This document shows, piece after piece, positions 1,705 to 6,016 of a stretch of 64,000 bases of DNA. The translations under genes and the position numbers were made by a program. Source of the DNA: Escherichia phage vB_VIPECOMC06; sequence record PQ416618.1; one strand, 5' to 3'. Numbering within the stretch: the first letter of the stretch is position 1; each line of letters begins with the position of its first letter. Below the pieces are notes generated by a model, which saw only the letters and a program-made list of their open reading frames with translations, had not been told where the DNA came from and did no database searches.

Positions 1705-3918
1705 ATGATTATTGAAACGGCTAAAGAAACGATTATTGGTTCAGGTGGTAAGAGCACAGCATTTACTATTCAAGGCAATAGCAAAGTTTATAAGATTTTG
1801 TCTAATGACCTTTATACAAACAAAGAATTGGCTTGTGTACGTGAATTAATCACAAACTGTATCGATGGTCAAATTCTTAATGGTTGCACTGATAAGTTTA
1901 TTGTTCAGGCTCCAGGTCGTTTAGACCCACGTTTTGTAGTTCGAGACTTTGGTCCTGGTATGAGTGATTTCACCATTCGAGGTAATGACGAAGAGCCAGG
2001 AATCTATAACTCATATTTTGCTTCAACTAAAACATCGAGTAACGATTTCATTGGTGGATTCGGACTCGGCTCTAAAGCTCCACTAGCATATACCGATACG
2101 TTTAACCTTACGTCTTATCACAATGGTGAAGTTCGTGGTTATGTAATTTATCAAGATGACACAGGTCCACAGATTAAGCCAACCTTCGTAGATAAGATGG
2201 GTCCTGATGATCGGACCGGCGTTGAAGTAGTTGTGCCTGTTAACCCAGAAGATTTTGAAAAGTTCGCATCTGAAATTGCATATGTTATGCGTCCTCTCGG
2301 TGATATTGCAGAAGTTCGTGGTGTTAAAGATATCAAATACTTCCCGGAATTCGATGATGTTTATTTAGCCAAGGAAGCTCCATGGGGTGAACGTGGTAAT
2401 ATCATGGCTGTTTATGGTGGTATTGTATATCCAATCGGAAGTGTTATTAAAGAACAAACATGGATGATGACGCGATGCACTACAGCTTATATTAAATTCC
2501 CTATGGGTGAACTAGATGTAGCCCCGTCTCGTGAAGCATTGTCATTTGATAAACGTACAGTAGCAAATATCCATAAACGCGTTGCAGAAATCGATGCTAA
2601 ATTGTTCGCTGAAGATTCTAAGAAATGGATTGATTGTAAATACCCACGTCATGTGTTCCGTGAAATTGATTCTCTTGGCTATACCGCTCGCAAATACATG
2701 GAAAAGGCTGGGTCTAATATTGAATCACTGAAATACTCTAAAGAACAACTAACTTATTCCGAGTTGTACAAACGTTTTAAAATGGGACCTGAGTGGTGTA
2801 ATCTTGGCGTCGTATACGATATCGTTGAATCCCCTCGTCTTCGTCGTATTCGTGAAAGCGGTAGCTCAACGGCAACCATTTCAATTAACAGTCTGATTGG
2901 CATTAACATTAAAAATGTTGAAATTGTTATTGACGACGTTAAGGGACGCGTTCCATTAATGCGAGCTCTTAATTCAATTGAAATGTCTAAAGACGAGGTT
3001 AAATTAACCGGTAAAGTTCCACGCGGTTTTGGTAAAAGCGTACTATTCGTTGACCCTACAGACGAAGATGCAATGAAACTTCTGGAACGCCTTAAAGTTA
3101 TCTTTGATGGCGACAACATTAACATGTACAAGACTTCAGAGCTTTTACAAATCGTTAAGCCATGGATTGAAGTCAAGAAACGGACTAATGAGCCTCGTCC
3201 TAAATCCCCGAGTGCTCATCGATTCTTTAAGAATGAAAACGATGTTTGGGTATCAGAAGACCTCTTTATTCCGGCAAGTGAAGCAGATGAAATCCAAGGT
3301 TATGCTATAGTTCGTAATCGTTCTAATGCTGAATGTCTTGACGCAGATAAAGGTTGGTTGAACTATGACTCCAATTTCTTGACTCGTATTGCTGATTTGT
3401 CAGGTATTAAAGAGTTCACTGTAGTCCGTCCACAGATTGCTAAGAAAGTTCGTAAACTTGGTGAAGTAGAATGCTTGTTCGAAAAATCAATTAATGACTA
3501 TATTACGCTAATTGATAAAGTGGATTATGATGAGTATGTATCACCAAGTCGTAGAGCACAGCCTTATTTGAATCATATTACTCGTAATGAAGAGCTTAAC
3601 TTCCTTAGTAAATATTTTAGCTCTAAGAACAAAGAAATCAGTAAAGATTTTGCAAAACTTTCAACAGTAAATAATCGTTGGGGTTGGAATCGATTCTCAG
3701 GTGCTACTAACAGAGATCTGAATAAGAAGTTAGAATTGTGTGCTAAAATTTTCGATAAGCTTAAAGATAATGCTTACGATAATGATGATAAAATGGTTAT
3801 TGAATTTGAAACCAATTATCATATTGTGTCAGAATACATGGGACGACGTGGTACTCTTTCTAAAGAACAGGTCGCTCAAATCGTTAAATTCATGAAGGCC
3901 GTGGAAGCGGCCAAATAA
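1705..3918 (+). CDS. rIIA: rIIA membrane-associated protein (rapid lysis / lysis inhibition; GHKL ATPase-like N-terminus)
   Basis: 737 aa; N-terminus MIIETAKETIIGSGGKSTAF...RELITNCIDGQ matches the T4 rIIA pattern. Confidence 0.9.
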   Translation: MIIETAKETIIGSGGKSTAFTIQGNSKVYKILSNDLYTNKELACVRELITNCIDGQILNGCTDKFIVQAPGRLDPRFVVRDFGPGMSDFTIRGNDEEPGIYNSYFASTKTSSNDFIGGFGLGSKAPLAYTDTFNLTSYHNGEVRGYVIYQDDTGPQIKPTFVDKMGPDDRTGVEVVVPVNPEDFEKFASEIAYVMRPLGDIAEVRGVKDIKYFPEFDDVYLAKEAPWGERGNIMAVYGGIVYPIGSVIKEQTWMMTRCTTAYIKFPMGELDVAPSREALSFDKRTVANIHKRVAEIDAKLFAEDSKKWIDCKYPRHVFREIDSLGYTARKYMEKAGSNIESLKYSKEQLTYSELYKRFKMGPEWCNLGVVYDIVESPRLRRIRESGSSTATISINSLIGINIKNVEIVIDDVKGRVPLMRALNSIEMSKDEVKLTGKVPRGFGKSVLFVDPTDEDAMKLLERLKVIFDGDNINMYKTSELLQIVKPWIEVKKRTNEPRPKSPSAHRFFKNENDVWVSEDLFIPASEADEIQGYAIVRNRSNAECLDADKGWLNYDSNFLTRIADLSGIKEFTVVRPQIAKKVRKLGEVECLFEKSINDYITLIDKVDYDEYVSPSRRAQPYLNHITRNEELNFLSKYFSSKNKEISKDFAKLSTVNNRWGWNRFSGATNRDLNKKLELCAKIFDKLKDNAYDNDDKMVIEFETNYHIVSEYMGRRGTLSKEQVAQIVKFMKAVEAAK

Positions 3919-3927
3919 GGAAACATT

Positions 3928-4863
3928 ATGTACAATATCAAATGCTTGTCCCAAGAAGAACAGTTAGAAGCTTACGACCTGGTCAAATCAGGCAAATGGA
4001 CCCGTAAAGAAATTGCCGATTACTTCGACATTTCAACAGATACTCTTCGTAAGATTGTTAAGAATTTTAAAGCTGAAGAGAAAGCAGCTGAATTTGAAGA
4101 CGAAGAACAGGTCCCAGAAAATAATGAACCTATTATTACAGGTCATCGTCCAGAAATCGTATGGAACGCGTCATCTAAATTTATTTCAATCATTGAAGGA
4201 CGCGTAGCATACAATGCGACCCCATCAAGTCATGCAAATTTTGAAGAAATTAAAGCTAATTTGGTCGCAGGAAACCTTAGTAAAGCTGTCGAACTTATTA
4301 ACATCAAGAAAGCTATTAGTAAGTTTGTTGACGGTAATGTTGTTATTGAAGGTGGTAGTTTATTTTATCAAGGTATAGAGATTCGTTCTGGCCTGGTTAA
4401 TCGTATTATTGATTCTATGGAAAAAGGCGAAGACTTTAAATTCTATCTGCCATTCCTTGAAAACCTGTTAGAAAACCCAAGCGAAAAAGCTGTACAACGT
4501 TTATTCGACTTCTTGGTTGCAAATGATATTGAAATCACTGAAGATGGGCATTTCTATGCATGGAAAGTAGTTCGTAAAGACTATTTAGATTGCTATAGCG
4601 GCACATTTGATAACTCGCCTGGTAAAATTGTTTCAATGCCTCGTACTCGTGTTAACGATGATGATACACAAACTTGTTCCCGTGGTCTACATGTTTGTGC
4701 TAAATCATATATTCGTTACTTTGGTTCTAGCTCAGATAAAGTTGTTAAGGTTAAAGTTCATCCACGTGATGTTGTATCTATCCCAGTTGACTATGGTGAT
4801 GCTAAGATGCGTACTTGTCGTTATGAAGTAATTTCAGACGTTACTGAATTATTTGCAGAATAA
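3928..4863 (+). CDS. rIIB: rIIB protein
   Basis: 311 aa; MYNIKCL... start and conserved C-terminal block ...PRTRVNDDDTQTCSRGLHVC.KSYIR.FGSS match T4 rIIB. Confidence 0.92.
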   Translation: MYNIKCLSQEEQLEAYDLVKSGKWTRKEIADYFDISTDTLRKIVKNFKAEEKAAEFEDEEQVPENNEPIITGHRPEIVWNASSKFISIIEGRVAYNATPSSHANFEEIKANLVAGNLSKAVELINIKKAISKFVDGNVVIEGGSLFYQGIEIRSGLVNRIIDSMEKGEDFKFYLPFLENLLENPSEKAVQRLFDFLVANDIEITEDGHFYAWKVVRKDYLDCYSGTFDNSPGKIVSMPRTRVNDDDTQTCSRGLHVCAKSYIRYFGSSSDKVVKVKVHPRDVVSIPVDYGDAKMRTCRYEVISDVTELFAE

Positions 4864-4868
4864 TAATT

Positions 4869-4890
4869 GGGGACTTCGGTCCCCTTTTTT
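4869..4890 (+). terminator. intrinsic terminator after rIIB
   Basis: GGGGACTTCGGTCCCC hairpin with UUCG loop followed by TTTTTT. Confidence 0.8.
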
Positions 4891-4904
4891 CTTTAGGGGT
4901 AATT

Positions 4905-5192
4905 ATGATTCATCCATTTGACGTATCAGAATCCAAAATTGCTAATCTTCGTGGTCATCATAAGTGTAAATCAGTTTATTGTGCTAAATTGGTAAAACAT
5001 CCTGGTGATGCACACTACGGCTGGTTAGAATGCGACGAAGTTGTTATTGAAATTCCGCCTGTAGATGCAGAATATCTTGAAGAAGGTGACCGCATTTATT
5101 TTGGCGAACTACACATTAGAGGTATCTATGGTAAAGACGAACTTGGGACTGTTGAGACTGAAGAATCTTCCGACATTTATCCTGTCGAATGA
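4905..5192 (+). CDS. hypothetical protein (overlaps the denB start in another frame)
   Basis: 95-aa ORF with AGGGG Shine-Dalgarno 6 nt upstream; follows the rIIB terminator. Confidence 0.45.
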   Translation: MIHPFDVSESKIANLRGHHKCKSVYCAKLVKHPGDAHYGWLECDEVVIEIPPVDAEYLEEGDRIYFGELHIRGIYGKDELGTVETEESSDIYPVE

Positions 5193-5685
5193 GTTTTTGA
5201 CTAGTGAAATGAAGGTGAAGATTGCTGACACTGCTCGGTATTCCCTGAGCCAAAATCCTGGCCAAAACAAAGAAGATGTAGTTCGACGTTGTAAGGTTGC
5301 GGTCTTTGCAGAGTATGTAGTAGCAAATTGGCTAGACGGGTATGTTAATAAAGGTATTGAAGACGTAGAAGACCCGTACACGTATGCATGGGACGTGTTA
5401 GCCCATCCCAAGTATTGTGGAATTCGTGTAGAAGTCAAGACGCACCAGATAGATTCTAAATGGATTTCGGTTACCACAGGATACAGTGGTGATTATCCGG
5501 GTGGTAATGGAATCAATATAGGGCCCTTCTTGAACCATCGAGTCGCAGATTGCATTATTATATTAGATGTCAAAGAAACCTCACCTGACGTCTTCTCTTA
5601 TTCTATAAAGTTCGTGGGAGACCATGAAGACCTAAAGAAAATCGTCCGCAAGAGCAACTACAACGGGTGGTATCTTCAACTTTAA
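5128..5685 (+). CDS. denB: endonuclease IV (dC-specific ssDNA endonuclease), DenB-like
   Basis: ATG at 5128 with AGAGG SD gives 185 aa (T4 DenB length from memory) and places a Ser at residue 176, the residue reported as critical in T4 EndoIV; position downstream of rIIB fits. Confidence 0.5.
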   Translation: MVKTNLGLLRLKNLPTFILSNEFLTSEMKVKIADTARYSLSQNPGQNKEDVVRRCKVAVFAEYVVANWLDGYVNKGIEDVEDPYTYAWDVLAHPKYCGIRVEVKTHQIDSKWISVTTGYSGDYPGGNGINIGPFLNHRVADCIIILDVKETSPDVFSYSIKFVGDHEDLKKIVRKSNYNGWYLQL

Positions 5686-5696
5686 TTTCATAAAGT

Positions 5697-5730
5697 GTTT
5701 ACAACTAAGTAGGACTATGATATAGTAGTC
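5697..5730 (+). promoter_or_regulatory. T4-type early promoter with palindrome around -10
   Basis: GTTTACaactaagTAGGACTAtgaTATAGTAGTCCTAtc. Confidence 0.6.
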
Positions 5731-5752
5731 CTATCTAAAAGAGGATAACATC

Positions 5753-6016
5753 ATGAAATTTAAATTTTTCTACGCAAAACATAAAGTAACAGGCGAATTT
5801 GTTTCAATGTACAACACTGCAGATGACGAAGGGATGATTTATACCCATTTGGGACTATCTCATTGGGACTCGGACGTGCCTTATATGTCATCTGAAGCCG
5901 AAATAACTCGTCTGGTTAATGGACATATGAACGACCATTTTGGTGTTATTCTTTCTAAAGACCTTAAAGAGGTTATCAACAAAGGATATATGGAACTCGC
6001 GGAAGTTGAGATATGA
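5753..6016 (+). CDS. hypothetical early protein
   Basis: 87-aa ORF preceded by an early promoter and AGAGGA SD. Confidence 0.55.
   Translation: MKFKFFYAKHKVTGEFVSMYNTADDEGMIYTHLGLSHWDSDVPYMSSEAEITRLVNGHMNDHFGVILSKDLKEVINKGYMELAEVEI

Follow-up and report, generated by a model that had tools for sequence, protein, structure and literature searches.

Two genuine co-oriented genes of the early region, a 95-aa DUF7418 gene and denB, very probably overlap out of frame by 65 nt downstream of rIIB in the window (the entire 64,000-nt stretch of Escherichia phage vB_VIPECOMC06 DNA analysed here), with denB initiating at its own Shine-Dalgarno (SD) sequence and ATG, the tail of the DUF7418 protein overprinted on denB and both frames constrained. 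Comparison of the sequences points to a real, conserved dual-coding overlap between two genes that were already catalogued, that is, to a new example of a known phenomenon.

The window comes from a Mosigvirus (an RB69/JS09-like T4-type phage), and 851 bases around the locus match 154 phage records at 90-99% identity. The genes are arranged in the order rIIA, rIIB, a GC hairpin with a T-run, the 95-aa ORF, the denB-frame ORF, small ORFs, ndd and gene 52, and the features on which the analysis turns are the following (window coordinates):

1705-3918: rIIA
3928-4863, + strand: rIIB, 311 aa, the upstream neighbour (phrog_609 RIIB, E=3e-106; named rIIB in relatives)
4869-4894, + strand: GC-rich hairpin GGGGACTTCGGTCCCC with a T-run, terminator-like, between rIIB and the DUF7418 gene
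4895-4899, + strand: SD of the DUF7418 gene, AGGGG (direct sequence reading)
4905-5192, + strand: DUF7418 gene, 95 aa, homologue of RB69ORF272c (PF24193, phrog_2237)
5065-5067, + strand: upstream in-frame ATG that opens the 206-aa ORF; not a start
5065-5685, + strand: denB-frame ORF, 206 aa
5118-5122, + strand: denB SD, AGAGG, within the Ile-Arg-Gly codons of the DUF7418 motif GELHIRGIYG
5128-5685, + strand: denB, endonuclease IV, 185 aa, the true extent as judged from full-length alignment to T4 DenB and ~60 homologues
5128-5192, + strand: 65-nt dual-coding overlap, denB codons 1-22 and DUF7418 codons 75-95 plus stop
5133-5189, + strand: acidic C-terminal tail of DUF7418, KDELGTVETEESSDIYPVE, predicted to be disordered, over denB codons 2-21
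5209-5211, + strand: internal ATG, Met28 of DenB; the denB start annotated in Mosigvirus, not a conserved start

The hairpin between rIIB and the DUF7418 gene is labelled as a putative terminator in phage ATK47, and T4 and CC31 each have a counterpart of it. Separately, the region's best sigma-70-like promoter match (TTTACA, 17-nt spacer, TATAGT, upstream TG) lies at 5698-5733, where it overlaps an 8-bp inverted repeat (TAGGACTA...TAGTCCTA) just upstream of an 87-aa ORF at 5753-6016 (phrog_2390, RB69ORF270c).

Identity and start of denB

The denB-frame ORF matches phrog_1360 ('DenB-like DNA endonuclease IV') with E=2.4e-88, the profile beginning exactly at ATG 5128 (residue 22 of the 206-aa ORF). 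The product read from this ATG is 72% identical to T4 DenB (185 aa, NP_049887) over residues 1-185, and its database homologues carry Pfam PF26887. DenB alignments numbered from ATG 5128 show no variation at S176, G71 and G180 and almost none at W88, and the 185-aa translation contains Ser176, Gly180 and Trp181. Ser176 and Trp88 are experimentally important in T4/T2 DenB (PMC2175332), the T2 escape mutations G71R, G180E and W181* are numbered as from 5128 (PMC12916289), and the 185-aa form of T4 DenB is the one that was purified and found to be active in vitro (PMC1635256). These comparisons identify the downstream gene as a bona fide member of the DenB (T4 endonuclease IV) family, in which dC-specific cleavage of single-stranded DNA has been demonstrated for two enzymes only, those of T4 and T2. 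A search of the PDB with the predicted DenB fold returned no significant match, PD-(D/E)XK-type nucleases appearing only at E>1.

The first-pass annotation had preferred the start at 5128 for its AGAGG SD and for the 185-aa product with Ser176, a choice that is borne out by the conservation of the ATG, the SD and the 27 N-terminal residues. DenB loci were gathered from annotated phage genomes and IMG/VR (12, then ~60, at 35-100% protein identity), and an ATG was found at the site homologous to 5128 in all DenB loci examined; in T4 a stop codon directly precedes this conserved ATG. The stretch 5128-5208 encodes residues that can be aligned gap-free with T4 DenB (MQKTNPGLQRLFQIPTFTLSNSDLTCE vs MVKTNLGLLRLKNLPTFILSNEFLTSE), and the window product, which begins (M)VKTNLGLLR, belongs to a series in which the N-terminal motif M.KTNPG..RL..LP.F.L...DL..E recurs in every DenB lineage (12, then 61 homologues). 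This motif is also found in STML-198, Proteus phage PM2, the Acinetobacter phages 133 (Acj133) and AB-Navy4, and a Tegunavirus, none of which has an upstream ORF overlapping denB, so that N-terminal conservation in these lineages is no by-product of another frame. The gene directly before denB in STML-198 (L006 19-801; L-numbers are our locus labels) is neither rIIB nor DUF7418, being a 260-aa ORF with a DPPY motif that resembles Dam-type DNA methyltransferases, and denB there has the conserved long ATG 16 nt past the stop of this ORF.

Initiation at 5209, with a 158-aa DenB, no overlap and 5128-5208 untranslated in the denB frame, is what the databases imply, since DenB is annotated as 477 nt / 158 aa in 13/13 Mosigvirus GenBank/RefSeq records sampled (L001, L067-L078), RB69 included, and an ATG is present at this site in Mosig-, Tequatro- and Dhakavirus. 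However, these are the only genera in which DenB codon 28 is ATG, with D, A, T, S or N in its place elsewhere (most genera), whereas the upstream 27 residues, the ATG and the SD are kept in all DenB loci, even those without an upstream ORF. The predicted anti-SD duplex before the conserved ATG has an energy of -4.4 to -7.4 kcal/mol in 21/21 lineages tested and of -7.1 kcal/mol at 5128 (background mean -1.8, with 5% of positions at or below -6), compared to -0.2 to -2.5 kcal/mol among lineages for the +81 ATG and -2.2 kcal/mol for 5209 in the window. Moreover, the AF2 model of the 185-aa protein is confident over residues 11-30 (pLDDT 92-96) and places a helix at 6-12, a strand at 17-20 and a helix at 26-42, such that a start at Met28 would, according to the model, begin inside the last of these and remove a strand; the phrog_1360 profile likewise opens at the longer start. 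On this evidence the 5209 start, which the first-pass annotation had kept as its alternative, is a very improbable reading, and denB very probably extends from 5128 to 5685 with its main start at 5128. If so, it follows that the 65-nt overlap (5128-5192), reported in the first pass as lying in a different frame, is real. Minor internal initiation at 5209 may occur in the three genera that have this ATG. The ATG at 5065, which would give 206 aa, was also considered as a denB start and was rejected, as it is absent outside the Mosigvirus/Karamvirus group. A literature search for ribosome-profiling or N-terminal proteomic data from T4-type phages found none.

The short DenB of Mosigvirus is thus apparently an annotation artefact, carried over from RB69 or arising from gene callers in which overlaps are penalised, and the alignments indicate that DenB has been deposited 27 residues too short in RB69-type genomes. 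The long form is annotated in T4, AnYang, KpV477, P545 and STML-198; an intermediate-length DenB is annotated in CC31, in which the frame extends to the same conserved ATG; and the phage 55 record carries a 3-nt 'RBS' for the short start. DenB predictions in protein databases are between 158 and 200 aa long. The correction has practical reach, as DenB now attracts interest as the phage protein that triggers retron Eco2 and for its influence on the handling of host DNA, and constructs or alignments made from the truncated protein would miss a conserved structural element.

The DUF7418 gene and its neighbourhood

The 95-aa ORF at 4905-5192 indeed has the good SD noted in the first pass (AGGGG before ATG 4905), and its product matches Pfam DUF7418 (PF24193) with E=1.2e-37 and 128.8 bits, against a gathering cut-off of 27, over the whole domain (profile positions 1-99 of 101, residues 1-94 of the window ORF); it also matches phrog_2237 with E=1e-35. 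Compared with DUF7418, phrog_2237 and RB69ORF272c, it is a typical member that differs in nothing. The gene is labelled 'hypothetical protein' in more than 150 Mosigvirus relatives and bears the name RB69ORF272c in RB69, and homologues are found at the same position in Mosig-, Karam-, Dhaka-, Jiaoda-, Marfa- and Tequatrovirus relatives. Outside the overlap, 5%, 1.4% and 27% of sites vary within Mosigvirus at codon positions 1, 2 and 3, respectively, a substitution pattern of the coding type. Thus, of the suggestion that a novel gene is overprinted on the denB start, the genuine gene and the overprinting of its 3' end on the denB 5' end stand, but the novelty does not: the homology and the substitution pattern argue for a genuine gene that is neither a chance ORF nor new to the catalogues.

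The AF2 model of the DUF7418 protein (mean pLDDT 77.5) comprises a small beta domain (residues 1-76) followed by an acidic tail (77-95), of which residues 78-95 are predicted to be disordered, with pLDDT below 50 in the tail. GELHIRGIYG, the motif that closes the core domain, is encoded by codons that include the denB SD and ATG, and the C-terminal peptide reads ...DELGTVETEESSDIYPVE. The family is tiny, with 9 clusters at 90% identity and 11 representatives at 50% among 1.84 billion proteins, and it was found solely in T4-like phages. No structural relatives were found in the PDB, in BFVD the predicted fold has no match beyond other DUF7418 proteins, and a literature search found no paper naming DUF7418. 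An exhaustive search also returned a 5745-aa metagenomic YD-repeat protein (P0035) with a DUF7418-profile E of 5e-20; this match is spurious because it sums ~35 sub-threshold matches of a 90-aa repeat to profile positions 26-55. T4 denB.1 was rejected as a homologue of the 95-aa ORF, as it belongs to another family (phrog_774).

Conservation of both frames in relatives had been proposed in the first pass as a check, and both are open and encode homologous products in diverged lineages. In a survey of 62 loci, at least 10 distinct lineages proved to have a DUF7418-type ORF that extends, in the -1 frame, 65-68 nt past the denB start (equivalently, denB lies in the +1 frame relative to the DUF7418 ORF), while the overlap in other lineages is 53, 77 or 80 nt, and 17 nt in one group. 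Adjacency of the two genes is near-universal, and where they are adjacent the overlap is never zero. L064/L065 have a DUF7418 homologue two genes from denB, which is 86 aa long and ends shortly after the core domain.

T4 DenB resembles window DenB in its place downstream of rIIB and in the conservation of the 27 N-terminal residues (MQKTNPGLQRL...) and of S176, W88, G71 and G180, but the T4 locus differs in that DUF7418 is reduced to a remnant and the unrelated denB.1 is inserted after rIIB. The remnant is an unannotated 37-aa ORF with an in-frame internal deletion (MIYMNIGDSDIKE joined to SLNAENESWVTETISDSDIYPIEQ), located at L002 1074-1187 (OZ209057; the equivalent in NC_000866 lies between denB.1 and denB), and it still overlaps denB by 68 nt. 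Among T4 relatives, L017 has an intact 109-aa DUF7418 gene, and L019-L021 carry a 1-nt change in an A-run through which the remnant is read in the +1 frame as a basic peptide of 41 aa with a 73-nt denB overlap. The decay of DUF7418 in the reference phage T4 is probably why the gene has gone unstudied; as a conserved denB neighbour that is degraded in T4, it is worth study. As for denB.1 itself (64 aa, phrog_774; L002 842-1036), it has a copy of the GGGCTTCGGCCC hairpin on either side, as though it had arrived together with a duplicated terminator; denB.1-homologous ORFs are found upstream of DUF7418 in L017 and L052, and a literature search for 'denB.1' returned nothing relevant.

The overlap also marks a point of exchange between lineages, at which two strongly divergent types of DUF7418 allele are swapped. 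Three pairs (L005/L031, L023/L030 and L004/L025) have denB bodies that are 90-95% identical and DUF7418 alleles that are only ~35-45% identical (protein), with nucleotide identity falling from >0.9 to ~0.3 within ~30 nt of the denB ATG. The window and L023, by comparison, are 73-93% identical through the DUF7418 end and the overlap and 50-70% identical in the denB body. Since identity breaks at or in the overlap, the overlap is a module boundary.

Constraint on the two reading frames

Synonymous-site constraint in the overlap, another check proposed in the first pass, was assessed within the genus on 17 distinct, indel-free Mosigvirus sequences of 781 nt, with a positive outcome. Third positions of denB are variable at 2/21 sites in the overlap vs 58/165 outside (p=0.023) and those of DUF7418 at 1/22 vs 20/74 (p=0.037); when these wobble sites are pooled, 3/43 are variable in the overlap vs 78/239 outside (p=3.7e-4). 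Variability at non-wobble positions does not differ between the overlap and the rest. Comparisons between genera gave p-distance and synonymous-difference values in the expected direction that were not significant (synonymous differences at conserved residues of 0.43 in the overlap vs 0.52 in the denB body, with 22% of equal-length body windows as low), and mosaicism confounds these tests, as the overlap itself contains recombination breakpoints.

Base composition bears the mark of the second frame as well. In denB codons 2-21 of lineages with a 53-80 nt overlap, 47% of third positions are G and 14% are T, compared to 17% and 33% in the body, with Fisher p=3e-19 (G3) and 9e-9 (T3) for the lineages with a 65-68-nt overlap, which are not independent of each other; the same codons in 11 lineages without an overlapping ORF have 19.5% G and 30% T. 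Codons 15-18 of denB read CCG ACA TTT ACC, from which the Karamvirus-type, Jiaodavirus and Mosigvirus lineages each differ by 1-2 bases, and yield D-[IF]-Y-P in the DUF7418 frame. We then simulated the -1 frame by holding the DenB protein of each lineage fixed and drawing synonymous codons from a single codon-usage table (from the window) for all lineages. The simulated chance that this frame stays open for 21 codons is 0.05-0.31 per lineage (0.11 for the window), whereas it is open in 10/10, and the tail contains 5-8 Asp and Glu in 20 codons vs ~2 expected (P<=0.002 in each of the 10 lineages), figures to be read knowing that the compared lineages are not phylogenetically independent and that the overlap comprises 65 sites only. 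Of the 11 more distant lineages without the ORF, 10 have a -1 frame that closes early, L064 being the exception; closure comes after 11-50 nt except in L064 (71 nt) and STML-198 (68 nt), and the net charge of the tail is -5.9 vs +1.5 in the no-overlap lineages.

Could the last 19 DUF7418 codons nevertheless be a functionless run-on to the first stop, in a real overlap that only denB constrains? Such a run-on would fit with the predicted disorder of the tail, with its acceptance of amino-acid changes that leave DenB unaltered (5 tail residues differ between L007 and L039 with no change in DenB, and DUF7418 residue 84 is T, A, I or V within Mosigvirus), with an overlap that ranges from 17 to 80 nt among lineages, with the short tail of the non-adjacent 86-aa L064 member and with the lack of significance of the between-genus synonymous test. 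Yet a run-on does not account for a frame that is open against expectation in every one of the simulated lineages, for a G3 excess and T3 deficit that are strong only where the ORF overlaps, for Asp and Glu at three to four times expectation, for the maintenance of D-[IF]-Y-P by near-invariant rare codons, or for the suppression of denB wobble variation within Mosigvirus. We consider it unlikely. Polymorphism, composition and simulation are three independent tests, and their agreement indicates that the second frame is constrained. As the tail is predicted to be disordered and is tolerant of changes, the constraint would be on an open, acidic tail of ~20 residues with D-[IF]-Y-P and not on a folded element; tail length varies between lineages, and composition and length are constrained more than sequence.

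Proposed mechanism and comparison with known overlaps

In the dual-coding arrangement that we favour, denB would initiate independently, on a transcript presumably shared with DUF7418, from the strong SD and ATG that lie within the H-I-R-G-I-Y-G codons of the upstream gene. Ribosomes translating DUF7418 would read through this initiation site and stop 65 nt inside denB, and in doing so would add an acidic, disordered tail of 19 residues to the 76-residue beta domain. The DenB N-terminus would be the older reading, onto which the DUF7418 tail was written, because this N-terminus is conserved where DUF7418 is missing, the alternative frame is there neither open nor acidic, and the non-adjacent DUF7418 protein is short-tailed. 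The third codon positions of denB (G-rich, T-poor) would serve as first positions of the tail codons. Both frames are now under purifying selection, and the acidic tail is presumably needed for function.

A different use of the same arrangement would be a programmed +1 frameshift or tight coupling, in which DenB depends on DUF7418 translation, as a fusion or by termination-reinitiation. The denB SD and ATG do lie inside the upstream coding sequence, where upstream ribosomes must cross them, the genes are almost always adjacent, and DenB is toxic and presumably under tight control (PMC1635256). Nonetheless, denB still has a dedicated ATG and strong SD where the upstream ORF is missing and in T4, where only the remnant is left; an unsystematic look for slippery sites gave no hit; and neither a stop beside the start nor a structure hiding the ribosome-binding site (RBS) was found: the DUF7418 stop lies 65 nt past the denB start, so that coupling of the ATGA type, or reinitiation at the start, is not applicable, and RNA folding of 5080-5200 predicts no more stability than for shuffled controls (z=+1.1). 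A hairpin at 5171-5187 from a terminator scan was dismissed as weak and not conserved in other lineages. DenB synthesis by frameshifting or coupling is therefore hard to credit, and independent initiation of denB remains the preferred reading. It is conceivable, albeit improbable, that DUF7418 is a dedicated DenB partner whose tail, as a single-stranded DNA mimic or tether, holds back the toxic endonuclease or sets its timing, or else dampens recognition of DenB by the host (through retron Eco2, for instance); the overlap would then keep the pair linked in inheritance and expression, and the repeated exchange of divergent alleles exactly at the overlap would reflect an arms race.

Out-of-frame overlaps on the same strand are well known in phages, the overlapping genes of phiX174 and the lysis gene of MS2 being examples of overprinting. 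As in these cases, one DNA stretch is read in two frames at the DUF7418-denB junction, both are conserved and wobble variation is suppressed. Unlike them, the overlap is short and terminal, with the tail of one gene lying over the head of the next for 65 nt instead of a gene embedded in another, and the overprinted part is a (predicted) disordered acidic tail and not a folded or membrane domain. T4-like phages also use stop/start overlaps of 1-4 nt (ATGA type) for translational coupling. The DUF7418-denB pair resembles these in that the genes are co-oriented neighbours, probably on one transcript, with the downstream RBS within the upstream coding sequence, but differs in that the upstream stop lies 65 nt beyond the start and no RBS-sequestering structure was found. 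The locus offers a clean, well-controlled, small example of overprinting, with an acidic tail placed in the wobble positions of the 5' end of an older gene and with lineages that naturally have no overlap as controls. The DUF7418-denB overlap is of an ordinary kind among phage gene overlaps.
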